This document shows positions 1 through 62,464 of a stretch of DNA of 64,000 bases, one piece after another. The translations under genes were made by a program, and so were the position numbers. The stretch is from Patescibacteria group bacterium (GTDB lineage Bacteria; Patescibacteriota; UBA1384; XYA2-FULL-43-10; 1-14-0-10-43-13). Position 1 is the stretch's first letter. Each line of letters begins with the position of its first letter. Where the stretch lies: contig JBBTQI010000001.1 of NCBI GenBank assembly GCA_038078835.1, positions 722 to 64,721 on the forward strand, written 5' to 3'. Under the pieces are notes generated by a model. That model worked only from the letters and a program-made list of their open reading frames with translations. It was not told the origin of the DNA and made no database searches.

Positions 1-707
1 AAGCCTCTGGCCTTTGGCCTCTGGCCTTTGGCCTTGGCGCTGTAAACACTATGATCCACCCCATTATAAATCACAGCAATTTTCTGCGGCGAAACCCGGT
101 ATGTCTCAATAATATCCTTCTTTGATGTTCCGGACACGGTAATAATCTTGGCCGAATCGTGTACCGCCGACTTCATCACCGCCCGGAAAGCGATACGTTT
201 GAGCGAGTTTTGCCGGTGGAGGTGGCCGAACATCGTCAGATCGTGGACGGTCACGACATATCTGCCGCGGTAGCGAAGAGGATGATTGAATTGGGTAAAG
301 TGGACAAGATCAAACTTTTTGGCGTTTAGATAGGAGAGTAGTCTCGTCTGCTCTGCCACGGAGTAGTGGGGAATATCGAGTATACAAACAGTCAAGTTAG
401 GATATCGTTTATCGGTCACGAGGTCTGTATCGTTAGGGGTCTGTCGGCCTTCGGCTCTGAGGCCGCTCAGGCTCGAATAGTTACGTAACCGCTCGATGCT
501 ACCGATACGAGCTTCGTTACCCTGACCGCTCGACGACCTGACGACCACATTTAACCACTCCTTCACCGCTTTCACTCCGGCCGGTCTGATCAGCAAAGTA
601 TATTGATTGGATTTATCTAATGCCAAAATGCCCCGCACGATCTCTAGGGTGTAGCGGCTGACCGACTCCCCCACGCCAATAAAACGACCATCAATCAAAA
701 TTTTCAT
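1..707 (-). CDS. Glycosyltransferase family 1 (GT4-like), N-terminal portion; C-terminus lies beyond window start
   Basis: Reverse translation from ATG at 705-707 reads MKILIDGRFIGVGESVSRYTLEIV...VVTVHDLTMF..., typical GT4 N-domain. The open frame runs to position 1. Codons at 1-45 are a GGCC-type tandem repeat encoding KAKGQRPKARG. Confidence 0.6.
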   Translation of the reverse strand, partial: MKILIDGRFIGVGESVSRYTLEIVRGILALDKSNQYTLLIRPAGVKAVKEWLNVVVRSSSGQGNEARIGSIERLRNYSSLSGLRAEGRQTPNDTDLVTDKRYPNLTVCILDIPHYSVAEQTRLLSYLNAKKFDLVHFTQFNHPLRYRGRYVVTVHDLTMFGHLHRQNSLKRIAFRAVMKSAVHDSAKIITVSGTSKKDIIETYRVSPQKIAVIYNGVDHSVYSAKAKGQRPKARG

Positions 708-6029: not shown

Positions 6030-6150
6030 CTCCTACAAAATTACAAATTTATCGAAACTACAAATACTACAAAACTATGAATCAGCGATCCCTCTTTGTT
6101 TGTGATTTTGTAAGATTTGTACTTTTGTGTAATTTGTAATTTTGTAGGAG
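6030..6150. repeat. MITE-like element with perfect 19-bp terminal inverted repeats (CTCCTACAAAATTACAAAT)
   Basis: tcctacaaaattacaaatt at 6031-6049 is the exact reverse complement of aatttgtaattttgtagga at 6131-6149. Internal arms are CAAAT/ATTTG-rich. The right TIR supplies the AGGAG SD of the downstream gene. Confidence 0.7.
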
Positions 6151-7408: not shown

Positions 7409-8740
7409 ATGAAAAAAATTGTCTTAATCTCCTCCGACAAGGTGGGTAGAACGATGGCGGGACCGGGGATCCGCTATTTTGAGATGGCTCGCGCCCTGGC
7501 CCAAGATTTTAACGTCACCCTGGCCGTCCCCAACGAGTGCGATCTGGCCGGCGAGGGCTTCTCTCTTAAGACTTACAACTCGCGCTGGCCGAGCCACACC
7601 CTCAAAGCGACGGTTGCCCCAGCCGATGCGGTTGTTGCCCAAGCCCTCTGGCCCGATCTGCTTTTTTACCTCAAGCGCCATAAAATCAAATATATCGCCG
7701 ACCTCTACGATCCCGTTGTCATTGAGGTGCTTGAATATTTAAAAAACGAACCGCCGGCCCGTCAGCGTCGGACATTTGACTTCCATCGCCGCAATCTCCT
7801 GCTGCAAGTTAATACCGCCAACCACCTCCTTTGCGCCACTCCGACCCAACGCGATTTCTACCTCGGCATCCTCTCCGGCCAGGGCCTGATTACGCCGCGC
7901 GAGTACAGCCAATCGGACGATCTGACCCGCTCCATCTCTCTCTTACCCTTTGGCCTGCCCAAAGATCCGCCCAAGCCGCCCGGCCGCTTTAAATTTGAGG
8001 AACTGTATCCGGCGATTCGACTCTCTGATAAAGTTGTTTACTGGGGCGGGGGCATCTGGAACTGGTTTGATCCCTTGACCGCTATCAAGGCAATCGAGCA
8101 GATCAGCCGGAAGCGGAGTGATATTAAACTGGTTTTTCTGGGCGCCAAGCATCCCAACAAAAAGATTAAAGCCATGGCGGCGGTGACTGAGGCCGTTGAA
8201 TACTGCCGGAAGCACGATTTACTTGACCGCTTCGTCTTCTTCAATTTTGACTGGACTCCTTACGAGGAGCGCGCCGGTTATCTTGCCAGAGCCAATATAG
8301 GCATTTCGACCCACCGCCAAAATCTTGAGACTCACTTCTCCTTCCGGACACGGATTCTTGACTATCTTTGGGCCGAACTGCCGATGGTCCTCACCGAGGG
8401 CGACGCCTTAAGCGAGATGGTGCGAGAAAAAAATCTCGGAGCGGTAATCAAGGCGAGCGATGTTCCGGGTGCGGCCAGAGCCATCATCGAGCTGGCCGAC
8501 AACGGTCGGCGGCGGGACGAGATAAAGCGCAATATCAGAGCGGTCAAAGATCAATACTGCTGGGAGAGAGTCGTTGCCAACCTGGCTGATTTGATTAAGC
8601 GGGACACCCTGCCCGATCGGCCTCTTTCTTACCTCAAACTGTTGCGCCTCGCCAAAAATTTTTACTGGGCGGGAATGATTAAAAAATTAAATTCCAAATC
8701 ACAAATAACAAATGTTTGGAAATTGATAATTGGACTTTGA
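7409..8740 (+). CDS. Glycosyltransferase family 1 (GT4)
   Basis: 443 aa with a GT4-type C-terminal domain (VYWGGGIWNWFDPLTAIKAI...LGAVIKASDVPGAARAI). The last ~18 codons (KKLNSKSQITNVWKLIIGL) are encoded by the repeat element at 8688. Confidence 0.7.
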   Translation: MKKIVLISSDKVGRTMAGPGIRYFEMARALAQDFNVTLAVPNECDLAGEGFSLKTYNSRWPSHTLKATVAPADAVVAQALWPDLLFYLKRHKIKYIADLYDPVVIEVLEYLKNEPPARQRRTFDFHRRNLLLQVNTANHLLCATPTQRDFYLGILSGQGLITPREYSQSDDLTRSISLLPFGLPKDPPKPPGRFKFEELYPAIRLSDKVVYWGGGIWNWFDPLTAIKAIEQISRKRSDIKLVFLGAKHPNKKIKAMAAVTEAVEYCRKHDLLDRFVFFNFDWTPYEERAGYLARANIGISTHRQNLETHFSFRTRILDYLWAELPMVLTEGDALSEMVREKNLGAVIKASDVPGAARAIIELADNGRRRDEIKRNIRAVKDQYCWERVVANLADLIKRDTLPDRPLSYLKLLRLAKNFYWAGMIKKLNSKSQITNVWKLIIGL

Positions 8741-8778
8741 GATTTATTTGGTATTTGTTATTTGATGTTTGGAGTTTA
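8688..8778. repeat. CAAAT/ATTTG palindromic element (copy 3)
   Basis: aattccaaatcacaaataacaaatg paired with atttggtatttgttatttgatgtttgg. Overlaps the 3-prime end of the GT1 gene and precedes the flippase start. Confidence 0.6.
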
Positions 8779-8784
8779 AAGATA

Positions 8785-11142: not shown

Positions 11143-12309
11143 ATGAAACAAAAGCGAACGGCGCCAATTTGGCTTAAAGTTCTAATCATCTTCCTTGCTT
11201 GGAAGGTTTTATTGCTGTTTGCCGTGATCATTTCGGTCACTGAGGTTCTGCAAATCAAAAATCCGGAGAAACAACCCAAGATCAACGCTCCGATCTTTAT
11301 CCAGGCTGCGGTCAAGTGGGACGCCGGCTACTATTTAAAGATTGCCGAGGAGGGCTATGGTAGTGAACTCAATTCCAAGCCGGCCTTCTTCCCTCTCTTT
11401 CCACTACTTTTAAAAACCGGCACCAGCTTAACTGGGATGCAGCCGGCGACCGTCGGGCTTATTATCAATACCTTCGCCGCTTACTTTGCTTGCCTCTTTC
11501 TCTATCTCCTGGCCATTGAATACTTTAGTCAAGATAAAGAGAGCGCCAACCGAACGCTTCTCCTCTTTCTCTTCTTCCCGATGTCCTTCTTTCTGACCGC
11601 CCTCTATACCGAGGCGCTAACCTGTGCCCTGACCTTTGGCGCTTTTTACTATGCCAAAAAACAACGCTGGGCTTTGGCTAACTTTCTGCTTTTACCCTTA
11701 ACCGCCCTCCGTCTGCCTGGTTTGATCGCGGCCGGGGCTATTTTTACCGAATATCTATCCTCTCAACACTTCAGTTTAAAAAAAATAGACCGCCGGATTG
11801 GCTGGTTTATTCTCGCCCCGCTTGGCCTTATCGGTTATATGACCTACCTTTATTTTCACTTTGGCGATGCTCTGGCTTTTCTCCACGCTTATAATTACGA
11901 GTGGGAGTACTATCAGCGGAACTTTAATATTCTGGCCACCGTCTGGCGGGAGACCGCTAAAATTGGCTCGCTCCTTTTGGCCGGACCGGCCGGACTCAAT
12001 GAGAACTTAACCAATGAGCTCATCTACTTTATTCCCTGGGTGGCAACATTCGTTCTGGGAATCATCGGCCTCAAAAAAATGCCGGCAAGCTATTCGGTTC
12101 TGACTTTTTTGACGCTTTTTCTTGTCTCCAGCTCCAGCCACTTTGTCGCCGTTGGCCGCTACGTTCTGCCTCTTTTCCCGAATTATCTGATCTTGACAGA
12201 TCTCCTACGTTTCCGCTCACCCGCCCTCTTTGGCGCTATTTTAGCCGCCTCGGCGATCCTGCTAGGAATCTTCCTCCTTCTCTTTAGCAACGGTTACTGG
12301 GTCTCTTAA
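11143..12309 (+). CDS. GT-C fold membrane glycosyltransferase, PIG-V/GT76-like (mannosyltransferase-like)
   Basis: 388 aa polytopic protein with WDAGYYLKIAEEGYG ... FFPLFPLLLK, reminiscent of the PIG-V / DUF2029-type GT-C families. Confidence 0.45.
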   Translation: MKQKRTAPIWLKVLIIFLAWKVLLLFAVIISVTEVLQIKNPEKQPKINAPIFIQAAVKWDAGYYLKIAEEGYGSELNSKPAFFPLFPLLLKTGTSLTGMQPATVGLIINTFAAYFACLFLYLLAIEYFSQDKESANRTLLLFLFFPMSFFLTALYTEALTCALTFGAFYYAKKQRWALANFLLLPLTALRLPGLIAAGAIFTEYLSSQHFSLKKIDRRIGWFILAPLGLIGYMTYLYFHFGDALAFLHAYNYEWEYYQRNFNILATVWRETAKIGSLLLAGPAGLNENLTNELIYFIPWVATFVLGIIGLKKMPASYSVLTFLTLFLVSSSSHFVAVGRYVLPLFPNYLILTDLLRFRSPALFGAILAASAILLGIFLLLFSNGYWVS

Positions 12310-13083
12310 TAGATCTCGAACCCGGCAAAACTGATCGGGGCCAAAAGTGTTGATGAGACGCTCGACATCGGCCAGAAGGGGCGGTCCGGTCTGGATATTG
12401 TAATAGAATGGAACATGGCGGCTCCGCATTGGGATAAACTCCCAGGAGTGGAAATAAAGAACGGGCGTAACCCCCTGCGCCAAGAGCCAGCGGCAAGCGC
12501 CGATGGTTCGCCGCACCCCCAAGACGCGGGTAAAGAGCCAGCTAATCGGCAGGCGATGACGGCTGACGGCAACCGGAATCTCGACGATCAAATGATGCGG
12601 GAGCGGCCGGAAGGGAGCCAGGGGTGAGCAGGCATGATTGTAAAATCCGGGCAGATAGGCCGGATGGAGCGAACTGTCGTAAGCAAAACCGAATTTGTCC
12701 AAGATCTCCAAAAGCTGAGTTGAATACTGCATCTGCGGCGAGCGGAAACCCAATATCTTTGTGCCGACAACCCTCTCCAGTGTCTGTTTGGCCAATTTAA
12801 TATCCGCCGCCAGATCCAGTTCTGCGTTGCCGCGATAATAGTGGCTGTGGCCATGGCAGGCGATCTCGTGTCCCGCCCCGGCGATCTTCCTCACCTGAGC
12901 CGGCTCCCCTAGAGCATAATCACCGGTGACAAAAAAAGTCGCCGGCACCTTCGTCGACCTCAATAAGCGCAAGAGTCGGATATTGCCCTCTCTGCTTTGC
13001 CGGGTTTCGCCATTCTCCGGCACATCGTGTCCCTCAAGCAGGGGACAATTCCATTGTTCGCAGTCAATCGTTAAAGCGATCAT
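12262..13083 (-). CDS. Polysaccharide deacetylase (CE4 family)
   Basis: MIALTIDCEQW, TFFVTG and HGHSHY resemble the CE4 motifs (TFDDG-like, HxxxH). Confidence 0.7.
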   Translation of the reverse strand: MIALTIDCEQWNCPLLEGHDVPENGETRQSREGNIRLLRLLRSTKVPATFFVTGDYALGEPAQVRKIAGAGHEIACHGHSHYYRGNAELDLAADIKLAKQTLERVVGTKILGFRSPQMQYSTQLLEILDKFGFAYDSSLHPAYLPGFYNHACSPLAPFRPLPHHLIVEIPVAVSRHRLPISWLFTRVLGVRRTIGACRWLLAQGVTPVLYFHSWEFIPMRSRHVPFYYNIQTGPPLLADVERLINTFGPDQFCRVRDLLRDPVTVAKEKEEDS

Positions 13084-13901: not shown

Positions 13902-14070
13902 TAGTTTGTTGGCAAGTTAACAAGCCTGCTAATCTCGACGTGATTCTTCCGTCATTATAGATCAATTTTTCAGTTCAGCCAAAAGTGTCAAGCCAAGTAA
14001 TATTTCTCTCCCCCTGCTCAGCCAGTTTAATATCCTTAACTTTATAATCCATACTGCCTTCCTTCTTTGC

Positions 14071-16326
14071 TTACTTGCTGTCTTGCTTACTTGCCTGCTC
14101 CTCGGAGCCTTGGCGCAGTGGGGCTGTCTTGCTGACAAAAACGATGTCGGCAATCGCATTTTCCCCGGCGACATTGATGATTTTGATCTCGTCGTCCGCT
14201 TTAATATCGATATCGCCCAGCTTGCGCCAAACAAACTTTTCCACTCCAACATCCTTGTCAACTTGGAACTTGTCACCCTTCGGGTGATCGCCCGCAGGGC
14301 GAAAAACTGAAAACTGGAAACTTCCTGACGAGCCTCCGACAAGGTGGCGAATCCAGAGCTCATAGGAGCCGCTCTCAGTCGCTTTTCCTGACAGAACGCT
14401 CTCCGGCTTGTCGGTGTAGATAAAATCCTGCCGCAGTTGGGTAAAGAGGTGTTTGCGCCAGAAATCATACCGTCCCCGACTCCAACCATCTTCATAGTAG
14501 GCAAACCCCCTTGCCCACTCCGTTATCGGCAATTGTTTAATTGCCTTATTGCCCCACTGTCCCCTTGCCGAATTGCCAATTTTGGTTATTCGATCATTGG
14601 AATTTATTTGGGATTTGTTGTTTGGATTTTGGAATTTGAAAATATGGATATTTTCCCCGAACCTCTTTGTTTCCACCAATCCCTCCTTTGATCTCACCAA
14701 TGCCAGAAGATCGGTCTGATTCCACTTTTTGACGATAACCGGATCGGTCTCTCGCCAAAGATTGGAGGCTTGAGCAAAGCGGCTCTCCGTATCCAGACGA
14801 AGAATGACGCAATCAACGCCGCCCTCTGCCAGCAGAGAGGCAAATTCGCCCTGATCATGCTTTTCGTAAAATTGCGACACTAATTCATTGCGATAGAACC
14901 GCTCGGCCGTCGGCAAAAAAGAGAAGGTCGCGCCATCGTCAAGGCGCGGCACACCCAGCGCCAGAGCCAAGAGATCGGAGTTGGCCGCATCGCGAAATTC
15001 GGCCCGCTCATCTTTAAAGTAGACAAAGCCCAGTCCCGGCGGATAATAGGCCTTTTGACACACACCGCTATCAGCCAGATAATTTTTCAGTTCCCGATAC
15101 TCCGCCGGCACTTTGGTGAGCGGCAGGTAACCGGCATAGTCAAACGTTAAATAGGGCGCGATGATAAATAAGGCGCTGCCGGCAAGCAAGGTCTTAAGGC
15201 CGGAGGCTAAAGGCCGGAGGCTAAAGGCCGATAAGCAAGCGAAAAGATAATCCAAGCCAAAGGCAAAGAGAATAATGGCGGCGGCCGCGACAATGAATTG
15301 GAGATGATAGATCTCGCGGAAAATACCCAGCGCCGGTATCCGCTCAAACAGCGCGACAAAGATTGGCCCCAACGGTCCGCTCGGACCCTTGGGAAAGGGG
15401 GCAACCGATATTAACGTCAATATGCTGGTCAGCGCCAATTCGCGGCGGGGACGATTCCCGAGGCCGAAAAGAGCCGCCAACCAGAAGACAGCCAAACCAA
15501 AAAGATAGCGGGGATCATGCGAGAGGGCGTAAAAGAAATTATGGGTAATCTGGTGATCGGAGAAGTTCAGAAAATTCCCGGCGCTGTGGGGCATCATTCG
15601 CATATACTCCAGCGTTGTGACGGCCACTGCCCTAATCTGCTCCGCACCCTGATCATAGCTCAAAGACAAGACGAACCAGGGCAGAAGAAAGAGGACAAGA
15701 GCCGACCAAGAGAAGATCAAATTAAAGAAACGCTCTCGTCGTCGCCCGGCGGCAACGAGAAGGTTAATCATCAAAAAGAGGGTCAGAAGCAGGCCCGCCT
15801 GGACTTGGGCAAAAACAAGCGAATAAAGAAAACCCAAACCAAGATAGTGCCGCCAGTTTTTTTTCTTGATATTAAAATAAAGGTGGAGAAAAAAGGGCAA
15901 GGCGGCGAAGGCCAAAAGCGACCAGCGGAAACCAACAATTGTTCGGACAAAAAGATAAGGATTAAAGGCGTAAACCAGAGCCGAAATCGTGGCAGCGAGC
16001 CGGTTTACGCCTTGCGACTTAGCGAAAAGAAAAAACCCGGCGGCGGCCAGAGCGTGAAGAAGAATAAGAAAGAGAGCGAAACTGAACTCCGGTCGAAATA
16101 GACCCAGCGGGGCCAGAAGAATCAAGCCGTTTTTGCTGGCAAAGTCAAAGGGATTGCCGGCCCGAAAATCGCCAAACTCCCGCCAAAGATTTCTCATATC
16201 CAGAAGCGGCCAATCCCAATCATAACGAAGGGGCAGGCCGTCTGATCGCAAATGCGATAAAACCAAAACAGCAAGCATCAATAAAGATACCGCAATCACT
16301 TGTTTTGATTTGATTATGTTAAACAT
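14071..16326 (-). CDS. Large GT-C fold membrane protein (YfhO/ArnT-like) with C-terminal extracytoplasmic domain
   Basis: 751 aa with an about 12-TM N-terminal region and a soluble C-terminal domain. Carries in-frame repeat insertions at 14581-14645 and 15193-15236. Confidence 0.55.
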   Translation of the reverse strand: MFNIIKSKQVIAVSLLMLAVLVLSHLRSDGLPLRYDWDWPLLDMRNLWREFGDFRAGNPFDFASKNGLILLAPLGLFRPEFSFALFLILLHALAAAGFFLFAKSQGVNRLAATISALVYAFNPYLFVRTIVGFRWSLLAFAALPFFLHLYFNIKKKNWRHYLGLGFLYSLVFAQVQAGLLLTLFLMINLLVAAGRRRERFFNLIFSWSALVLFLLPWFVLSLSYDQGAEQIRAVAVTTLEYMRMMPHSAGNFLNFSDHQITHNFFYALSHDPRYLFGLAVFWLAALFGLGNRPRRELALTSILTLISVAPFPKGPSGPLGPIFVALFERIPALGIFREIYHLQFIVAAAAIILFAFGLDYLFACLSAFSLRPLASGLKTLLAGSALFIIAPYLTFDYAGYLPLTKVPAEYRELKNYLADSGVCQKAYYPPGLGFVYFKDERAEFRDAANSDLLALALGVPRLDDGATFSFLPTAERFYRNELVSQFYEKHDQGEFASLLAEGGVDCVILRLDTESRFAQASNLWRETDPVIVKKWNQTDLLALVRSKEGLVETKRFGENIHIFKFQNPNNKSQINSNDRITKIGNSARGQWGNKAIKQLPITEWARGFAYYEDGWSRGRYDFWRKHLFTQLRQDFIYTDKPESVLSGKATESGSYELWIRHLVGGSSGSFQFSVFRPAGDHPKGDKFQVDKDVGVEKFVWRKLGDIDIKADDEIKIINVAGENAIADIVFVSKTAPLRQGSEEQASKQDSK
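14581..14645. repeat. CAAAT-family element copy inside CDS (in-frame, encodes FKFQNPNNKSQINSNDRITKIG)
   Basis: ttggaatttatttgggatttgttgtttggattttggaatttg. Same orientation relative to the coding strand as the other intragenic copies. Confidence 0.55.
15193..15236. repeat. GGCC-type 13-mer tandem repeat (AAGGCCGGAGGCT x about 2.7) inside CDS
   Basis: cttaaggccggaggctaaaggccggaggctaaaggccg. In-frame, encodes ...SAFSLRPLASGLK.... Related copies at 1-45 and 57326-57390. Confidence 0.6.
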
Positions 16327-18293: not shown

Positions 18294-20892
18294 CTCTCTG
18301 TCCTCGCCTTACCAGTAGGTACCGCAAACTTGCCAACATGGCTAACGCTGATATAATCAATCCCAGATAGAATAATCTCTGTGGCCAGAACTCAATAATT
18401 AATTCGAGGCTCTTGGTGCCATCGGGATTGGTTTGACAATGGCCGCTCTCTTGGCAAAACCTTTCTGCATTGACAATCCATGCATTAGCGTAACCGTTTA
18501 CTTTAAGATGGGTTTGAGCATCGCCAAGAGGAGCCTTAAACCAGGTTTCGGCAACTCCACCATTACCTAGATTATCATTTTGAATGGTTCCTTGGAAGTT
18601 TTTGGACACAAAGTCAATCTTGTTCCGATCGCCTAAAGTTGACACCAAACCTCGATTAACATAATCAGCCAGCTCCTCCCGAGTTGCCCCATCCGCCTCA
18701 TTCCCCCCTGGAATTTGATAAGAATTCAGCAGGTCAGCAGGTAAGCTAGTAAGCGAGTCAGCTGTCTTGCTATCTTGCTGTCTTGCTATCTTGCTTATAT
18801 AAATCTTCCACCCCCTATGGTACGCCTCATTAAAAACCAGCAGGAAGTCTTCCCTGGCCTGATGTGCAACAACGCGATATTTGACCGGGGAGATTTTCTT
18901 GAATTCAATTGCCGGAGGATTAACCGTTTCTTCCGCCAAGCGCGCCATGGATTCGGCTTTATTCGGATTGTCGCCGCCAAAGACTACTGCCGATGCCGTC
19001 TCCTTCGGCCAAATATCCAGAATTTTGGCCGGCACTTCATTTGATTTGACGATTTTTCGAGGAACGTAAATATGCGGGAGGAAAGATTGGCCGTTCAGGC
19101 GGTAGAGAAAAAAGTCGCCCCAGATTTGTACTAAAGAGAAGCGTTCACTTCTGAGCATGCTTGCGATCATCTCTCTGTTAATCTTGTTTTTATAGACTTC
19201 CTCATTGACATTATCCCGACGGAAAATAACATAACGCGTATTCAAAATCGCCAAATAGCGATCGATCTCTTCGGAGAAATTCTGAAATTCATTCTCGTAC
19301 CGACGATAAAGATCGGCTAATAGTGGTGACGATTGCGGATTAAGACCGATGCTGTTACCGTACTGGTTCAAAATTAAATAGGGGGCGGGACCGAGTAAAT
19401 TCCAGAGCGGGTCAACACCGACGCTTGACCAGCGGTAAATCGTCCAGGAGCCGGAGGGAGAGCCGGCATTATCGGGCAAAATCAGGTTGCGTTGGTCAAG
19501 GCGAATCCGCTTAACTCGCTCTGCCCCTGCATAATAATCCACCGGAATAGAGTAGTAGCGTTTAAGAAATTTATTGGGGATCACCTCGTTCCGGGGAATG
19601 ATGCCATTAATAAAGAAGGGGTAGGCGTTAATGGCAATCGCTCCCAATGTTAGAGCCAGAGCCAGCCAGCCCAACTTCCTCCGATAAGCAAATACTGCTG
19701 ATAGAGCGAGCGCCAAGAAAATCGACAGGACAAGAATGAGAATCGGATAGAATTTTTCCATCGAGAAACGGAAGATCCGAAAGGGCGTGTTGTCAATCAG
19801 CCAGGCAAAGGGAGCAGCCAGAGGATCATGAATGCCCTTAATAAGAAAGATTAAAACTAGCGCTGTTACCGCCCACACAAAGTATCTCTTCAAGTACTTG
19901 CCCTTTTCCCAGAGAAAAAAAGTCCAGGGCAACAAAGCCAAAAAGTATCCGGCCAGGATTATAAGCGGTTTGGTAAAGTAATATTTCCCGAAGAGATAAT
20001 AATTGGGATCACGTGTCGCCCAGAATCCTTGAAGGCGCAAAACCTCAAAAAAGGAAGTGAAGCGAAACTCATAATTCCGCAAGTTTCCATTGTCAACCCC
20101 GGCGCTCTGGCCCATAAACTTGCTCGATTCAAAAAAAGAGAGTGGGCGCAGAATCCACCATAGGTTGGCTAGTAGGTAAATCAGGGTAAATTGGAGATAA
20201 GTCGTTTTATTCTGCCAAATATCCCGCCGGTAGATGATGCCTAAGGGAATTAAGATCATAAAGAAGGCCAAAAAGTAAGCCGGATTCTCAAAAGCCGGGA
20301 CAGCTAAGATGTTTACAAAAATAAAATATAGAAAATAACGTGACTTAACCCTTTTCTCCTTCGCTTCAAATATCCTGATCAGATAATAAATAAGCAAGGG
20401 GGCGATGCTGTATATGAACATGGCGATCAGGAAACCGTGTCCCCAGCGATAGTTATAGAGAAAGGGATTAAGGGAGTAAAACAGGGCACCAACTAAACTG
20501 ATCAAGTTCAGTGCCGGCTGTTTCGCTAAGTTCTTTCTGACAAAATGCCGCACCAGAACAAATGCCGAGAGGCCCGAAAAAAAGAACCAGATTAAAAAAA
20601 GCATCTTCTCGGTGAGAGAGATATTGCGGGTGAAAAAGTGAATCAAGACAAGCAATGAGGTATAAATAAGCGAAGCAGCGTTCCGGTCTTGGGAAACACC
20701 CAGACCGCGAGTGTGATCCCAGCGATACCAGAGTTTCTCCGTGTCAGTGATCGGCTCAAGCATAAAGGAGAAATCGGCCACGTTGATAATGTTATTACCG
20801 TGAAACCAGAAAAAGACCTGACTGGCCAGAACGGCCAAAAGCAGGACATAAAACCAATCTCGGCTGAGAATTTTCTTGAACTTATCGATCAT
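18277..20892 (-). CDS. Large GT-C fold membrane glycosyltransferase-like protein (871 aa) with C-terminal beta domain and terminal TM anchor
   Basis: About 13 TM helices then a soluble domain. The C-terminus ...NGYANAWIVNAERF...LELIIEFWPQRLFYLGLIISALAML mirrors the YfhO-type C-terminus. Paralog of the 832 aa protein. Confidence 0.55.
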   Translation of the reverse strand: MIDKFKKILSRDWFYVLLLAVLASQVFFWFHGNNIINVADFSFMLEPITDTEKLWYRWDHTRGLGVSQDRNAASLIYTSLLVLIHFFTRNISLTEKMLFLIWFFFSGLSAFVLVRHFVRKNLAKQPALNLISLVGALFYSLNPFLYNYRWGHGFLIAMFIYSIAPLLIYYLIRIFEAKEKRVKSRYFLYFIFVNILAVPAFENPAYFLAFFMILIPLGIIYRRDIWQNKTTYLQFTLIYLLANLWWILRPLSFFESSKFMGQSAGVDNGNLRNYEFRFTSFFEVLRLQGFWATRDPNYYLFGKYYFTKPLIILAGYFLALLPWTFFLWEKGKYLKRYFVWAVTALVLIFLIKGIHDPLAAPFAWLIDNTPFRIFRFSMEKFYPILILVLSIFLALALSAVFAYRRKLGWLALALTLGAIAINAYPFFINGIIPRNEVIPNKFLKRYYSIPVDYYAGAERVKRIRLDQRNLILPDNAGSPSGSWTIYRWSSVGVDPLWNLLGPAPYLILNQYGNSIGLNPQSSPLLADLYRRYENEFQNFSEEIDRYLAILNTRYVIFRRDNVNEEVYKNKINREMIASMLRSERFSLVQIWGDFFLYRLNGQSFLPHIYVPRKIVKSNEVPAKILDIWPKETASAVVFGGDNPNKAESMARLAEETVNPPAIEFKKISPVKYRVVAHQAREDFLLVFNEAYHRGWKIYISKIARQQDSKTADSLTSLPADLLNSYQIPGGNEADGATREELADYVNRGLVSTLGDRNKIDFVSKNFQGTIQNDNLGNGGVAETWFKAPLGDAQTHLKVNGYANAWIVNAERFCQESGHCQTNPDGTKSLELIIEFWPQRLFYLGLIISALAMLASLRYLLVRRGQRDEEQI
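18721..18806. repeat. About 80-nt segment near-identical to 23296..23372, containing 8-mer tandem repeat (RTCTTGCT x4)
   Basis: gaatttgataagaattcagcaggtcagcaggtaagctagtaagcgagtcagctgtcttgctatcttgctgtcttgctatcttgct. Encodes QQDSKTADSLTSLPADLLNSYQI in-frame. Confidence 0.6.
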
Positions 20893-22874: not shown

Positions 22875-25347
22875 CCGATCTCACTCTGTCTCGCCGATAA
22901 TACCAAATTAGAAATCCCAAACAAGACAAAAAAGTAATTCCGCTTATAGCCAAGCCCAAATAAAAAACTCTCTGAAGCCAATATTCGATCACGATCTCCA
23001 TTTCGTAACCGCCATCTGAATTTAGCGCACAACCGCCGTTTTGGCAAGCCGCCGCCGGGTCAATTACCCAGGCGTTGGCGAAACCGTTGGCCGTAAGATG
23101 CGGCGTCTCAAAGGAAGGCTTAAAATACGTCTCGTAAAATGGCCCCCCCCCTAGATTATCATTCTGTATTGTACCCCGATTCTCCCGGGAGATAAACTTA
23201 ATCGTGCCCTTCTCCCCCAACGTCGTCACCAAATCTTTGGCAATGTAATCTTTAAGCTCATCTCTACTCGCCTGTTCCCCCTCATTTCCCTTCAGAATTT
23301 GATAAGAATTCAGCAGATCAGCAGGTAAGCTAGTAAGCAAGTCATCTGTCTTGCTGTCTTGCTGTCTTGCTAATTTATAGATTTTCCACTTCTCGTCAAA
23401 GCTTTCATTGAGCACAAGGCTAAAAGGTTTGCGGACGCTACTGATCTTCAGTCGGTATTTAACCGGCGAGATTTTTTTGTATTCAATCCGCGGTGCTTGC
23501 TTCCCGTCAATTTGACTTACCAGTTGATCGATTCCCCTAGGGTTTTGGCTGCGTAAAAAGACGGCTGGCGAAGTATTTTTATTAATATCGCCGCCAAAGC
23601 CTTGCAAAGCAGCTATCTCCCCGTTGATAATCCGGGCGTCGCCGGTCGCATATAAATGCGGCCGGGTATTTTTCAGGCGATAGATGACCGTTTGCCCCTC
23701 GGCAAACACCTGCTCCAGCCGACCGCCTAAAACCTCCTTCTCGAGCGCTTGCCACATTTGCCGGCGGCCATCGTTATTAAGATCGTAATTTGAGATATTT
23801 TTTCGCAAAACGATATATCTAACCCCTGTCGGCCATAAGGCGTCCGCAATATTGCCCTCGACGGTTGACTTCTTTAACATATCCAGAAAGTCAGTCGGGC
23901 CAAGGTGGCGATCGGTGGCGGTTAATAAGCCGGGAATGGGAGAGTAGATGGCAAAGATATCGCGAATGCCGCGGGAATATTTCGGGTCATCGTCAACAAC
24001 CATACCACTATAGGAATAGGGCAAATAAAGCACCTTGATATCAGCCTCTTGCCGCGCCATAAACTCCTCGGCCCGATACGCCTCAGGCGGGAAGATCTTG
24101 GTTGTCAGGCGACTGTCGTTGCCGGCGCGATGCTCCCAGGCCGCGAGCTCCCCCGACCACCAAGGGACAAGATAGGTAATCCAAATAGTAAAAAGAAGGA
24201 TGATCGCTATTCTATATTTGCGGTACGAAAGCCAAAAATGATCTACCGCCAGGGCAATCAGAACAGAGAAAGCAAAAACCGATAGCACGCTAAAACGGGC
24301 CAAATCCCGTATCACATTTGAGAAGGGAATATTGAGGAGCACTTCCCGATGCAAGCTAAGATAATACATCTCCAGAGGCACCAGGGCTACAAGCCAGAGT
24401 GAGACAATCAGCCTTCTTCTCTCTTTAATAAAAAGGGTTGGCAGCACTAACAGGGGCACTAAAAATGACAGGAGTGAAAGACCATAGTTGTTAATGATTG
24501 TTTCGTACTGCATATTGTAGAGCGAGCCCCAAAGACGAATTATATTAAGAGGATAAAAATTAAGCGTTGTTCCCCGACTTGTAGTAGCAAAGACATATTC
24601 CGAGCCGGCCACTCCCTCATCCGAGAAAAAAATCTGTTGCAAAAGAGTCGGAGACAATAGGAGAAGGGCAATTATATTGACACTTAAAAGGACCTTTATT
24701 ATTCTGCCGGGACTACCGGCCGTCTTGTAACGGTAGTATGTAAACGCTAACAGAATAATATTGAGCCAAACAAGCGATTGGGGCTGCAGAAAAGAAATTG
24801 CTATCAAAAAAGAAGTGATGACAACCGCCCGGTTGTTTCCGTTAGCCACAGCCTCAATAAAGTACTTTGCCGCCAGCGGTGCAATACCCAAGAACAAGAT
24901 AGCGTAAAACCAGCCGATGATCGCGTAGTTAAACATCACCGGAGTTGTGACATAAAATACCGCCATCAGAGCAGCAACCGGATAGCCAAACTTCAAGTAC
25001 CTGAGAAAGTTAAAGAAAGAATATCCGGCTAGGGCAAACAGGGTGAGAATTAATAATTTTATATGAACCTCGCCGCCCAGCCCGATCAAAGACATGGCGT
25101 TGTTAACAAGTTGCCTCGATAGATCAAATCCAACGGTTTGATTGCGAAACGCGACAATACTGTTAAAGTCCCAAGCGTAAAATGCCATCTGCAGGGATTT
25201 GTATGTCTGAATTTTAGTTAAGGGAAAAGCAATATCTTCACCGATAATAAATCCGGGGAGAGCAACAACGCGGAAGAGAAGCGCAACTGATATCGCGGCA
25301 AAAAAGATGAGGGGTAACAATATTTTTACTTTAGGGAAAATCTTCAT
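22849..25347 (-). CDS. Large GT-C fold membrane glycosyltransferase-like protein (832 aa), paralog of 18277..20892
   Basis: C-terminal region ARQQDSKTDDLLTSLPADLLNSYQI...NGFANAWVIDPAAAC...EIVIEYWLQRVFYLGLAISGITFL is collinear with the 871 aa protein. Confidence 0.55.
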   Translation of the reverse strand: MKIFPKVKILLPLIFFAAISVALLFRVVALPGFIIGEDIAFPLTKIQTYKSLQMAFYAWDFNSIVAFRNQTVGFDLSRQLVNNAMSLIGLGGEVHIKLLILTLFALAGYSFFNFLRYLKFGYPVAALMAVFYVTTPVMFNYAIIGWFYAILFLGIAPLAAKYFIEAVANGNNRAVVITSFLIAISFLQPQSLVWLNIILLAFTYYRYKTAGSPGRIIKVLLSVNIIALLLLSPTLLQQIFFSDEGVAGSEYVFATTSRGTTLNFYPLNIIRLWGSLYNMQYETIINNYGLSLLSFLVPLLVLPTLFIKERRRLIVSLWLVALVPLEMYYLSLHREVLLNIPFSNVIRDLARFSVLSVFAFSVLIALAVDHFWLSYRKYRIAIILLFTIWITYLVPWWSGELAAWEHRAGNDSRLTTKIFPPEAYRAEEFMARQEADIKVLYLPYSYSGMVVDDDPKYSRGIRDIFAIYSPIPGLLTATDRHLGPTDFLDMLKKSTVEGNIADALWPTGVRYIVLRKNISNYDLNNDGRRQMWQALEKEVLGGRLEQVFAEGQTVIYRLKNTRPHLYATGDARIINGEIAALQGFGGDINKNTSPAVFLRSQNPRGIDQLVSQIDGKQAPRIEYKKISPVKYRLKISSVRKPFSLVLNESFDEKWKIYKLARQQDSKTDDLLTSLPADLLNSYQILKGNEGEQASRDELKDYIAKDLVTTLGEKGTIKFISRENRGTIQNDNLGGGPFYETYFKPSFETPHLTANGFANAWVIDPAAACQNGGCALNSDGGYEMEIVIEYWLQRVFYLGLAISGITFLSCLGFLIWYYRRDRVRSDGQKVANV
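23296..23372. repeat. Second copy of the about 80-nt conserved segment / 8-mer repeat (GTCTTGCT x3)
   Basis: gaatttgataagaattcagcagatcagcaggtaagctagtaagcaagtcatctgtcttgctgtcttgctgtcttgct. Confidence 0.6.
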
Positions 25348-49523: not shown

Positions 49524-51152
49524 CTATCTCGTCTTGGCGGTTTTTTCCCTCGGCGAGAAATCCATTAAGTGGCCCAAGACTTTGCCGGCCGCTCTAAAGA
49601 GAAATTTGACATCGCTAAGATTTCTGACGCCCAGAATTTTTCTCAAGATAAACTTCGGCGTGATAAATGATTTATAAAGACCTTGCGTCAACTCTTTGAT
49701 GTCCTCCTCTGTCAAAGGTGATTTCATCACTGCCATGCGCTGGTCGTAATCCTCCCAGTCCTCCGTTAAGAGCCAGCCATTCTTTTTGCACTCGGCAAAG
49801 AGCGGCGTGCCCGGGTAAGGGATAACGATGGTTGCCTGAAGAGTGTCGACATAACCTTTATCAAAAAGCTTCTTTGACAATTCGATTGTTCTTTCGGCGT
49901 CTCTCTTGCTCTCCCAGGGATACCCCATCATCGTCGTTATATGGGGCTCAAGTCCGCCCTTCTTGGCCATCCGGACACCTTTTTCGATTTCCGCTACCTT
50001 GAGGTTTTTATTGATCCGGTCGAGCGTCTTTTGGTTCGCCGATTCCAAGCCGTAGAGAATAAAGCGAAAACCGGCCTTCCCCATCAGATTATACTCCTCC
50101 TGATTTAGAGCTTTAAGGCGCATATTGCAGTCGATTTTGATCTTCTTGTTGTAACCGCGCTCAATCATCCCCTCACAGAACTCTTTGAGCCATGATCCGA
50201 TGGGAAAGGAGCCGGAGTCGTCCATAATCTCCTTAATGTGATATTTTTCAATCAATGTGCCGATTTCGTCCAGCACTCGCTTGACCGAGTGCTTGCGGTA
50301 ATCCTTACCGGGATAAAGGGTGGTCCAGCTGCAGAACCCACATTTTCCCCACCAGCAATCGCGAGCGGCATAAGTGTAGGTCCCAGGTGTTCGCTTGTAG
50401 TTACCGTTCTTGTAGGCGTAAAGATGCCACTTGGTGAGATCCCGGTCGATCAACGGGAGCTCATCAAGATCGTGATTAAGCTCAAAATGCCCCGTGTTTT
50501 GGTAGTTGGTAGCCAGTGATTGGTATTTGGTATTTAGGGATTGAGTTTTGGAACTTATTTGGGATTTGGGATTTGGGATTTGGGATTTTCCAGAGCGGTA
50601 CCAAATTCCCGGCTCGAGTGATTCGCCGTGATTAAGATGATTAGCGATATTCAATAGAAGAAAATCATAATCGCCGCCGGTGGCAATATAATCTACCTTT
50701 GAATTTTCCATTGATTCCCGCGGCAAAGCAGTCACATGATCACCGACCAGGACAATTTTCAAATTCCAGTCTTCAGTTTTCAATGATTCTTCTTTGAGAA
50801 CATCGATTACCTTCCAGTGGCGCTTGACTACCGGCGCTTTGGTTTCCAGCATTATAAGATCCGGCTTAAACCGCTTAATCCGCTCCAGCCACTCCTCCTG
50901 TGTCAACTCCTCGGCAATACCGTCATCCCACATCACTTCATAACCCTGATCCTGAAGCAGTGAGGCCGCGTATGAGGGGACCATCGGATAAATATAGGTC
51001 GGATTATTAAACCATTGAAACTGGCGGTTCTGGCCCAAACAGGGGGTGCCCTTCTCGTCCGGCATCGGCGGATAGGAAATCGCTACCTTGAATTTCGCGT
51101 TCTTCCTCCGCTGATCTTCTGTTGGTTTGGCAATATGTTTAATTGGTCTCAT
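49524..51152 (-). CDS. B12-binding domain radical SAM enzyme (class B rSAM, probable sugar methyltransferase/modifier)
   Basis: N-terminal cobalamin-binding-like domain (KPDLIMLETKAPV...KIVLVGDHVT), then CWWGKCGFC (Cx4Cx2C) and an rSAM core. Contains an in-frame CAAAT-family element at 50497-50590 in the interdomain linker. Confidence 0.6.
   Translation of the reverse strand: MRPIKHIAKPTEDQRRKNAKFKVAISYPPMPDEKGTPCLGQNRQFQWFNNPTYIYPMVPSYAASLLQDQGYEVMWDDGIAEELTQEEWLERIKRFKPDLIMLETKAPVVKRHWKVIDVLKEESLKTEDWNLKIVLVGDHVTALPRESMENSKVDYIATGGDYDFLLLNIANHLNHGESLEPGIWYRSGKSQIPNPKSQISSKTQSLNTKYQSLATNYQNTGHFELNHDLDELPLIDRDLTKWHLYAYKNGNYKRTPGTYTYAARDCWWGKCGFCSWTTLYPGKDYRKHSVKRVLDEIGTLIEKYHIKEIMDDSGSFPIGSWLKEFCEGMIERGYNKKIKIDCNMRLKALNQEEYNLMGKAGFRFILYGLESANQKTLDRINKNLKVAEIEKGVRMAKKGGLEPHITTMMGYPWESKRDAERTIELSKKLFDKGYVDTLQATIVIPYPGTPLFAECKKNGWLLTEDWEDYDQRMAVMKSPLTEEDIKELTQGLYKSFITPKFILRKILGVRNLSDVKFLFRAAGKVLGHLMDFSPREKTAKTR
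50497..50590. repeat. CAAAT-family element inside CDS with TTGGGA x4 hexamer run (encodes KSQIPNPKSQISSKTQSLNTKYQSLATNYQ)
   Basis: tttggaacttatttgggatttgggatttgggatttgggatttt. In-frame within the rSAM gene. Confidence 0.6.
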
Positions 51153-57003: not shown

Positions 57004-57080
57004 TTTTCCAAATGACTAATGACGAATATGACGATCCCCTTATTGGTTATTCGTTATTTGGATAATTTGTCATCCATTTG
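57004..57080. repeat. CAAAT/ATTTG palindromic element (intergenic, between GT2 and rmlD)
   Basis: ttccaaatgactaatgacgaatatgacg paired with ttattcgttatttggataatttgtcatccatttg. Confidence 0.5.
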
Positions 57081-58056
57081 TGGCGCGATTGCGTAAGTAA
57101 TCGCCCAGCATTTCTTGCCACGGCCTAACCTCGATCCCTAATGCTGATTTAATCTTCTCTTTGGAGAGATAGGAGTAAGCCGGACGCCTGGCCACCTGAG
57201 GATATTCTGCACTAGAGATAGGCTTTAAGTCAAGAGTTGTCCCGGTTTGAGCGAAAATTTCTTTGGCAAAATCATACCAGGAGCACGCCCCCTCGCCGGA
57301 GAAGTGGTAGATACCACATGGCAAGCTTAAGGCCGGAGGCTTAAGGCCGGAGGCTACATCAATACTGCCTTCGGCCTTTGGCCTTAGGCCTTCGACGATC
57401 TGGTTAATGAAACTGACCAGATCCCCCGTATAAGTCGGCGAGCCGACTTGATCATTGACGACCGACAACGAATCGCGCTCTTTGGCCAAGTGCAGCATTG
57501 TCTCAACGAAATTTGTGTCGGGATGTCCCTCCGGCAATTCGCCGAATATCCAGGCTGTCCGGATAATGTAATAGCCGCCCTTCGGGGACTGTCCCCCTGA
57601 GAGCCTGCCCCGTACTCGATACGGGGGGACTGTCCCCTTGTATGCTCTCTCAACCGCCAGCTCCCCTTCATACTTTGTCATACCGTACACCGAGAGCGGA
57701 TGGGGCTCGTCGGTTTCGACGTACGGGACGCCATTTTCGCCGTCAAAGACATAATCGGTGGAGATGTAAATCAGGTTTACTCCGGCCGCAGCCGCGGCTT
57801 TGGCGACATTCTCGGTGCCGGCAACATTGATCCGGCGGCACAGCGCCTCGTTCTCCTTGGCCTTGTCAACTTGAGTGTAAGCCGCCCCGTGGATAATCCA
57901 ATCCGGTTTCTCCCTTGATATGACCGCGCTGACTTTATCCGGATCGGTGATATCCATATCATCGGAATCAGTCAAAATCAGCCGGTACTTAGTACCCAGT
58001 AATTCGGAAATCTTATGGCCAAGCTGGCCTTTTGCGCCGGTAACCAGAACCTTCAT
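57070..58056 (-). CDS. rmlD: dTDP-4-dehydrorhamnose reductase with two in-frame repeat-element insertions
   Basis: MKVLVTGAKGQLG...IHGAAYTQVDKAE...NVAGTENVAKAAAAAGVNLIYISTDYVFDG, the RmlD signature. 328 aa versus about 290 typical. Extra segments coincide with the repeats at 57326-57390 and 57581-57640. Confidence 0.8.
   Translation of the reverse strand: MKVLVTGAKGQLGHKISELLGTKYRLILTDSDDMDITDPDKVSAVISREKPDWIIHGAAYTQVDKAKENEALCRRINVAGTENVAKAAAAAGVNLIYISTDYVFDGENGVPYVETDEPHPLSVYGMTKYEGELAVERAYKGTVPPYRVRGRLSGGQSPKGGYYIIRTAWIFGELPEGHPDTNFVETMLHLAKERDSLSVVNDQVGSPTYTGDLVSFINQIVEGLRPKAEGSIDVASGLKPPALSLPCGIYHFSGEGACSWYDFAKEIFAQTGTTLDLKPISSAEYPQVARRPAYSYLSKEKIKSALGIEVRPWQEMLGDYLRNRATNG
57326..57390. 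repeat. GGCC-type element: TTAAGGCCGGAGGC x2 plus inverted copy (GCCTTCGGCCTTTGGCCTTAGGCC)
   Basis: In-frame within rmlD, encoding GLRPKAEGSIDVASGLKPPALSLP. Same 13-mer as at 15193-15236, and a one-mismatch variant at 1-45. Confidence 0.6.
57581..57640. repeat. Palindromic element: GGGGACTGTCCCC x2 flanking a CCCGTACTCGATACGGGG hairpin
   Basis: ggggactgtcccc at 57584-57596 and 57625-57637. In-frame in rmlD, encoding TVPPYRVRGRLSGGQSPKGG, which is absent from canonical RmlD. Confidence 0.55.
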
Positions 58057-62374: not shown

Positions 62375-62464
62375 CTCCTGCAAAATTACAAATTCAACAA
62401 AATTACGAATCTTACAAATATTTGTAATATTTGTAGTTTCGGGAGATTTGCAATTTTGTAGGAG
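62375..62464. repeat. MITE-like element, same TIR family as 6030..6150 (CTCCTGCAAAATTACAAAT ... ATTTGCAATTTTGTAGGAG)
   Basis: TIRs match with 2 mismatches. The internal acaaattcaacaaaattacgaat is near-identical to the copy at 63694-63716. Confidence 0.65.

Follow-up and report, generated by a model that had tools for sequence, protein, structure and literature searches.

How can the gene of a housekeeping sugar-nucleotide enzyme carry two different hairpin-forming sequences and still be read in a single frame? This question is raised by rmlD, which encodes a dTDP-4-dehydrorhamnose reductase, in a stretch of 64,000 nucleotides (nt) from contig JBBTQI010000001.1 of a Patescibacteria group bacterium (assembly GCA_038078835.1); this whole stretch is referred to as the window. 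The two inserts are probably tolerated repeat DNA, selfish or neutral, that lies in two permissive loops of the protein and belongs to two unrelated kinds of repeat. The gene survives because each addition is a multiple of three, runs in a stop-free frame, and encodes a stretch rich in Gly, Pro, Ser, Lys, and Arg that is modelled as disordered coil and leaves all cofactor and catalytic motifs intact. The neutral or selfish character of the inserts, as well as the mechanisms by which they were inserted, are what we infer from the data described below.

The rmlD gene and its two additions

The following features define the gene and its inserts, numbered in the order of the protein:
57070–58056, minus strand: rmlD coding sequence (dTDP-4-dehydrorhamnose reductase, 328 amino acids (aa)), assigned by open reading frame (ORF), Pfam, PDB, and AlphaFold model
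57577–57636, minus strand: site 1, net insertion of 60 nt, residues G141–G160 (GTVPPYRVRGRLSGGQSPKG), columns 239–258 of alignment A1
57322–57390, minus strand: site 2, insert of residues 223–245 (GLRPKAEGSIDVASGLKPPALSL), a net gain of 20 aa compared to relatives with an empty site (HMMER, alignment A1)

rmlD closes a run of four genes, rmlA-rmlC-rmlB-rmlD (60335 down to 57070), and the NTP_transferase, dTDP_sugar_isom, and dehydratase genes immediately upstream provide the genomic association expected for it. Its product matches the Pfam family RmlD_sub_bind (E-value 1e-91) and RmlDs in the PDB (E-values of 1e-59 to 1e-27; 7e-59 and below for solved structures). A first-pass annotation of the sequence had noted a length of 328 aa against about 290 aa in typical RmlDs, a surplus confined to two places, and inserts that each add a multiple of 3 nt. 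All of this was borne out. Solved RmlDs comprise 273–304 aa and insert-free relatives 284–288 aa, and HMMER alignments to 1vl0, 3sc6, and 4wpg are interrupted at residues ~139–160 and ~224–246. Alignment A1, which contains 36 sequences (the window RmlD and its 35 nearest homologues by BLASTP, none more than 60% identical), places 20 surplus aa at each of the two positions, and each insert therefore adds 60 nt. The coordinates, sequences, and encoded peptide given by the first-pass annotation were likewise correct. It had also considered that these segments could be normal sequence in this lineage. Site 1 (57577–57637) is missing from all 35 aligned relatives, and both additions are absent from the solved RmlDs and from the shortest relatives.

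Both inserts were mapped onto structure by means of the RmlD alignments and an AlphaFold2 model (mean predicted local distance difference test score (pLDDT) 86.9; predicted template modelling score (pTM) 0.86). They fall into coil at helix-to-strand junctions, site 1 between helix 123–138 and strand 162–166, and site 2 between helix 210–223 and strand 248–251. Residues 144–155 and 226–242, i.e., the two inserts, are the sole parts of the model with a pLDDT <50. Superposition of the model on 1vl0 gave a target-normalised template modelling score (TM) of 0.95 and a root-mean-square deviation of 1.8 Å, and the core of the modelled protein, an extended short-chain dehydrogenase/reductase fold, is unchanged by both additions. 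Furthermore, G7, G10, and G13 of the cofactor motif (GxxGxxG) and the catalytic T100, Y124, and K128 are invariant columns in A1, and the DQxGSPT motif is retained. The superposition and the retained residues argue against a pseudogene, and the insert-bearing RmlD is presumably still active in reducing dTDP-4-keto-6-deoxy-L-mannose. Peptides that span the insert junctions are, e.g., AYKGTVPPYR and AEGSIDVASGLK.

Gene decay, which the first-pass annotation had named as a possible objection, and an artefact of assembly or sequencing were considered together. Hairpin repeats can provoke misassembly. However, the identical RmlD protein is found on 10 contigs of Hainich groundwater assemblies, and three loci from separate, independent assemblies are identical to the window across 6–7 kb, so that the inserts are no assembly artefact. 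Decay is contradicted by the uninterrupted ORF, the retention of all diagnostic residues, the confidently predicted RmlD fold, and the intact rmlACBD run. Both explanations are largely refuted and have next to no chance of being correct. An intein or intron was ruled out by size alone.

Heptamer repeats at site 2

The site-2 insert belongs to a family of GGCC repeats with the following members:
57329–57354, unstranded: arm 1 of the GGCC hairpin, 14-nt unit GCTTAAGGCCGGAG in ~2.2 perfect tandem copies (array 57325–57355)
57367–57392, unstranded: arm 2 of the GGCC hairpin, heptamer GCCTTNG in ~3.7 copies
15196–15230, minus strand: single arm, 14-nt unit AAGGCCGGAGGCTA in 2.5 perfect copies, encodes SLRPLASGLK in frame in a 751-aa membrane ORF (14071–16326)
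1–38, minus strand: heptamer GCCTYTG in 4.7 copies, encodes KAKGQRPKARG in frame in a GT4 glycosyltransferase gene that leaves the window (11393–12688 of locus L127)
12211–12224 of L127: second short GGCC-family array in the same GT4 gene, 150 nt further on, encodes QRPKAEG

At rmlD, the element is formed by inverted arrays of the heptamer AAGGCCN (57326–57392), with arms of 26 nt each that are 81% complementary and enclose a 12-nt loop (57355–57366). Folding energies are −22.7 kcal/mol as DNA (z −4.7) and −38.2 kcal/mol as coding-strand RNA (z −4.8), and no other hairpin in the 64-kb window was as strong as this element in a sliding-window fold with 70-nt steps (GC-corrected z −5.85). Two of its six frames are open, one of which is used by rmlD. 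In total, GGCC units were found at four loci within the ~74 kb that could be read, i.e., the window and 10 kb of L127. The array in the membrane ORF (15196–15223) is identical to site-2 arm 1 at 57329 in 27 of 28 nt. As GGCC units also lie in frame in other genes, they represent a repeat family of this genome and are not private to rmlD. Such AAGGCCN arrays would most likely grow by replication slippage, and they may spread or homogenise between loci via recombination or template switching.

An alternative is an origin in place, by local slippage of 7- and 14-nt units plus intrastrand template switching for the inverted arm, with neither transfer nor a mobile element. This would fit the 14-nt units, which are perfect tandem copies, and the many different 7–8-nt arrays in the window, which suggest a general slippage tendency; moreover, all GGCC arrays other than the one in rmlD are single-armed. 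The 27 of 28 nt common to rmlD and a gene 42 kb away, however, speak against it, and site 1 poses a further problem for this explanation (see below).

Occupancy of site 2 extends beyond this genome. The site-2 loop comprises 20–47 residues in 14 of the 19 closest homologues and 5–10 residues in the other 5, so that the position of the insert is partly lineage-typical. Where DNA was available, the inserts of the relatives were found to be two mirrored heptamer arrays, mostly decayed and built from units other than that of the window, such as TTAGGAC/GTCCTAA (locus L249) or CAGGACN (locus L125), and the peptides they encode are not conserved. Two relatives, P0002 (324 aa) and P0013 (285 aa), share 93% protein and ~95% DNA identity and differ by a 60-nt heptamer block exactly at site 2; the heptamers of P0002 are also present directly upstream of its gene. 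From these sequences, we infer that site 2 is a permissive loop that was filled early and is still turning over, and it may long have been a place where such inserts land or are retained in related Patescibacteria. The site-2 arms in the window are built from the current heptamer family of this genome, which suggests replacement or homogenisation between arrays.

Alternatively, the inserts could be selected, either as mRNA hairpins that act as REP-like stabilisers, pause sites, or processing sites, or as loops for partner binding or oligomerisation. Both inserts fold stably as coding-strand RNA (−32 and −38 kcal/mol), an insert at site 2 is retained in most close relatives, and effects of REPs on mRNA are established (PMC3733652). 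However, the site-2 inserts of the relatives show no folding advantage over shuffled sequence (z −1.2, −1.75, +1.07, and +1.44), which weakens the case for a selected hairpin at this site. Likewise, these inserts are gained or lost between proteins as similar as P0002 and P0013, site 1 is confined to this protein, and both loops are placed with low confidence in the model. There is no match to an Rfam family and no U-tract after either hairpin; the Rfam search of 57200–57800 gave sub-threshold resemblance alone, to microRNA precursors and the small RNA P26. We therefore rate a selected function as very improbable and continue with tolerated repeat DNA as the favoured explanation.

Further variation was observed in the RmlDs of the relatives. 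A third recurrent insert position (columns 157–205 of A1; 10–34 aa) follows the YVFDG motif. In addition, N-terminal extensions of 10–31 aa (columns 1–35) contain repeat-like peptides (NLNPKTQDL; FPRRRESS..LDSRLRGND) and probably stem from repeats upstream of the genes that were included in the predicted coding sequence. With regard to a possible DGR link, genes of the 23S-rRNA-IVP/bAvd family (PF05635) adjoin rmlD in two relatives (L249, 2695–3057 and 5580–5936; contig of P0059); the window holds none.

The nested insert at site 1 and its modules in other genomes

Site 1 encodes the peptide KGTVPPYRVRGRLSGGQSPKGG and consists of the following parts:
57584–57596, unstranded: 13-nt palindrome GGGGACTGTCCCC, copy 1, one arm of a 36-nt host hairpin (identified by sequence)
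57625–57637, unstranded: 13-nt palindrome GGGGACTGTCCCC, copy 2, other arm of the 36-nt host hairpin (identified by sequence)
57601–57626, minus strand: conserved 26-mer CCCCGTATCGAGTACGGGGCAGGCTC (net 24-nt module), holds a CCCCGTA/TACGGGG mini-hairpin (defined by metagenome copies)

The first-pass annotation had described site 1 as one separate element, made of two 13-nt palindromes flanking a hairpin. The flanking arrangement (a CCCCGTA/CTCGA/TACGGGG hairpin between the two copies of GGGGACTGTCCCC) and the distinction from site 2 hold. The 13-mer, though, is palindromic except for its central base, and the site is neither a single element nor a set of three independent hairpins, but two separate repeat modules, one nested in the other. 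The two copies of GGGGACTGTCCCC pair at 12 of 13 positions, and the 64-kb window contains 4 matches to it on both strands compared to 0.02 expected. Removal of 24 nt from site 1 leaves AAGGGGACAGTCCCCTCAGGGGGACAGTCCCCGAAGG, which folds into an almost perfect hairpin around a UCAG loop (−25.8 kcal/mol, z −5.0; this structure accounts for 98% of the ensemble). Site 1 is thus a 36-nt hairpin made of two GGGGACWGTCCCC palindromes, with the 24-nt module CCGTATCGAGTACGGGGCAGGCTC placed at its stem–loop junction. The hairpin formed by the GGGGACWGTCCCC dimer would have come first, and the discrete module would then have been put into the junction. Both 36 and 24 nt are divisible by three, and the composite is free of stop codons in five of its six frames.

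The central sequence CCCGTATCGAGTACGGGGCAGGCTC was first met in a spurious ORF over a 57-nt tandem repeat on an unrelated 1.83-Mb contig (L129), where the repeat is identical to the centre of site 1 in 28 of 29 nt. Queries with the peptides of all five open site-1 frames returned P0121, a spurious ORF over a tandem repeat, as the sole match; this negative result is weak, since RmlD itself was not returned though local phmmer gives an E-value of 1e-3. At the DNA level, an exact 25-mer of the module was identified in at least 119 metagenome stretches (L130–L248), spread across many metagenomes of varied GC content. Among the matches listed, which represent 107 distinct contexts, information content falls to zero directly outside the 26-mer CCCCGTATCGAGTACGGGGCAGGCTC, and the flanks of the module belong to at least six unrelated hairpin-repeat families. 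In the fetched loci, 17 empty copies could be matched with filled ones across 6 host-repeat contexts, in 2 cases within the same contig. Empty copies hold 2 nt (CC, once CG) where filled copies hold 26, which gives a net difference of 24 nt in every case, located at the stem–loop junction of the host repeats. By sequence comparison, this indicates a precise insertion of the 24-nt module into the loops of hairpin repeats that are not related in other respects.

The 13-nt palindrome is similarly widespread. A scan of a genome collection for paired GGGGACWGTCCCC copies 15–45 nt apart yielded at least 133 matches in at least 120 stretches (L004–L123) from more than 80 species and many phyla, compared to a chance expectation of <1 according to our own composition-based estimate. 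Hosts of such pairs or arrays include Planctomycetota, Atopobiaceae, Bacillaceae, Acidobacteriota, Prevotella, Lachnospiraceae, Omnitrophota, and others, with no Patescibacteria among the matches listed. The GGGGACWGTCCCC core does not vary, in contrast to the flanks and spacers, which differ from lineage to lineage, as exemplified by a conserved 63-nt element of Planctomycetes and by 28-nt tandem arrays. An origin in place thus fails for site 1, given the identical 24-nt module in these other contigs and the palindrome in so many species, and we consider it unlikely as an explanation of the inserts. Viral contigs contained one match to the 25-mer and none to the GGCC unit, i.e., there is no sign of a phage vector.

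Among the matches listed, both site-1 modules lie mostly outside long ORFs in other genomes, and for the 25-mer, about 9 of 120 metagenome copies are located far inside a long ORF. Pfam-confirmed genes with domains split or stretched by the 25-mer insert encode an Lhr-type helicase, a PMT-family glycosyltransferase, and a Zn-dependent alcohol dehydrogenase, the latter with ~110 extra residues ahead of its Rossmann motif. Other enzymes are therefore decorated in frame by these repeats as well, and this rmlD is no isolated case. Judged by sequence motifs alone, the site-1 modules are also in frame in putative RND-transporter-like and helicase-like ORFs, and certain GGGGACWGTCCCC copies are in frame within ORFs resembling real genes. 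Some metagenomic genes contain long in-frame mosaic blocks of hairpin repeats that include the 25-mer (L199 at ~6381; L206; L246; L165; L155/L146/L208). Further candidates among these encode a MalT-like ATPase (sub-threshold Pfam match) and a putative radical-SAM/HprK-like protein.

The sharply bounded, loop-inserting 24-nt module is the most interesting lead and goes beyond the original finding. As it always adds exactly eight codons, it could create protein loops, either alone or when carried along by a host hairpin such as that of the GGGGACWGTCCCC dimer. We tentatively propose, while judging it somewhat less probable than its negation, that CCGTATCGAGTACGGGGCAGGCTC could be an ultra-small mobile or templated insertion that targets CC at the stem–loop junctions of hairpin repeats in many uncultivated bacteria, via an enzyme or an RNA-templated process, and that creates new protein loops. 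If true, rmlD, the Lhr helicase, the Zn-dependent alcohol dehydrogenase, and the PMT glycosyltransferase would exemplify this process, and the machinery that mobilises the unit could be sought by co-occurrence analysis.

Weighing the origin of the inserts and comparison with known repeat systems

Several observations weigh against tolerated selfish or neutral DNA as the explanation of both inserts. No close relative (best 60% identical) with an empty-site allele is available, so that insertion is deduced from distant homologues, and the comparison of copies with and without the 24-nt module is one between members of the same repeat families, not between orthologous loci. Selection for a loop at site 2 could also account for the broad occupancy of this site. 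Within the readable ~74 kb, rmlD was the sole place where the site-1 composite, the 13-mer, or the 24-nt module occurred; the search for the 13-mer elsewhere in the genome, which the first-pass annotation had proposed, thus gave no further copy here and was successful only in other genomes. In the window and the additional 10 kb, there were no Pfam matches to a transposase, RAYT, or integrase. Moreover, neither site has a convincing target-site duplication: flanking direct matches are a trivial 3–5 nt (AAG, AAGGG) at site 1, and there are none at site 2. The lack of transposase and target-site duplication would also agree with the origin in place discussed above.

The window and the 10 kb of L127 form one very large cluster for envelope-glycan biosynthesis, which is unusually large for a small Patescibacteria genome. 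It encodes glycosyltransferases, sugar epimerases/dehydratases, methyltransferases, Wzy-like proteins, flippases, and large ORFs without a Pfam match. Other short repeats were observed in this cluster. The heptamer ATTTGGG (4.6 copies) lies within a repeat with a 21-nt period (50499–50588), in frame in a B12-binding radical SAM gene (49524–51152, minus strand). This array encodes SGKSQIPNPKSQISSK, and its NPKSQ/NPKTQ peptide style is shared with the RmlD inserts and N-terminal extensions of the relatives. Octamer arrays (GCTGTCTT/GCTATCTT) are in frame at 18761–18795, 23346–23371, and 14067–14094; their hosts are two ORFs of 871 and 832 aa without a Pfam match, which are possibly paralogous (ARQQDSKT), and the C-terminus of the 751-aa ORF (SKQDSK). 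Finally, an AT-rich intergenic palindromic family (6031–6150 and 62375–62464, also 8687–8779) has the termini CTCCTRCAAAATTACAAAT ... AATTTTGTAGGAG and arms of 7–8-nt units, and its copy at 62391–62460 is the second-strongest hairpin in the window.

Patescibacteria genomes are usually regarded as streamlined. The rmlD inserts, read as tolerated repeats, would extend selfish DNA in protein-coding genes from Rickettsia and a few REP-rich proteobacteria to these ultra-small genomes. They would also explain part of the heterogeneity in protein length among Patescibacteria, as RmlD ranges from 284 to 369 aa via three or four recurrent insert positions. Such inserts may also cause errors in structure prediction, in length filters based on homology, and in gene calling, where spurious N-terminal extensions can result. 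The 13-nt palindrome and the 24-nt loop-inserting unit are common to many uncultivated lineages, and the literature searched contained nothing relevant on either of them or on their peptides; nor did it contain anything on intragenic palindromes or heptamer repeats in Patescibacteria.

The first-pass annotation had called the tolerance of two hairpin-forming inserts by a housekeeping enzyme unusual. Two such inserts do occur in an apparently intact gene, but the rarity was overstated, because the literature already describes palindromic repeats that are read in frame within housekeeping genes, including genes with two of them (PMC10969869; PMC3733652). Rickettsia palindromic elements (RPEs; Ogata et al. 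2000) lie in frame within unrelated housekeeping genes at fold-compatible positions and leave the genes intact; they comprise ~100–150 bp, belong to families found in Rickettsia alone, and have a conserved peptide as their product (PMC10969869). The rmlD inserts resemble RPEs in being in frame at fold-compatible positions, with their repeat units in frame in other genes, and are set apart by size and host: they comprise 60 nt, reside in Patescibacteria, apparently have different sequences, and one of them is nested. Intragenic REPs tagged with GTAG or CGTC are known from several species, where dimers encode 20–30 aa, certain ORFs carry two inserts, and the insertions are regarded as decorations of a neutral kind (Di Nocera et al. 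2013, PMC3733652). Short palindromic units within genes and two inserts in one ORF are common to both systems. However, the tetranucleotide GTAG/CGTC is absent from 57577–57640 and 57322–57392 on either strand. REP families typically reach high copy numbers in their hosts, mostly between genes, and have a cognate RAYT (Y1 transposase) gene; the 74 kb read here contained the four loci with GGCC units, no further copy of the site-1 modules, and no RAYT. With regard to MITEs, inverted termini are present in the rmlD inserts and the target-site duplication is absent. The coding palindromes of mitochondrial genes in Nematomorpha, of which both arms are translated, are perfect and up to 284 bp long (PMC6649704). 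Being mitochondrial, much longer, and perfect, they belong to another biological system than the rmlD inserts.

Other comparisons concern the parts of the inserts. The small dispersed repeats (SDRs) of Nostocaceae, which Elhai et al. are said to have described in 2008 (Genome Res 18:1484; cited in PMC3116915), are reportedly sharp-edged modules of 21–27 nt nested in other repeats, with mobility inferred from filled and empty copies. The 24-nt module is similar in its sharp boundaries, nesting, and filled and empty copies, whereas SDRs are cyanobacterial and reportedly have another sequence, and the 24-nt module occurs in many metagenomes. Full insertion sequences of the IS1397/ISKpn1 type, which carry a transposase, are said to enter the loops of REP palindromic units (reportedly Clement et al., 1999; a reference listed in PMC3116915). 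Here, too, the loop of a repeated hairpin would be targeted, but 24 nt alone are added and no enzyme is known. The STRR heptanucleotide tandem repeats of heterocystous cyanobacteria, reportedly described by Mazel et al. in 1990, are said to be dispersed and mainly intergenic. They share dispersed 7-nt arrays with the GGCC family, which differs by lying in frame in genes and by the inverted pair that folds as a hairpin at rmlD. In-gene selfish palindromes are already known from Rickettsia and other bacteria, and the repeats found here appear to be undescribed themselves. By analogy, the best reading is that the rmlD inserts work like RPEs and intragenic REPs, yet belong to neither family.

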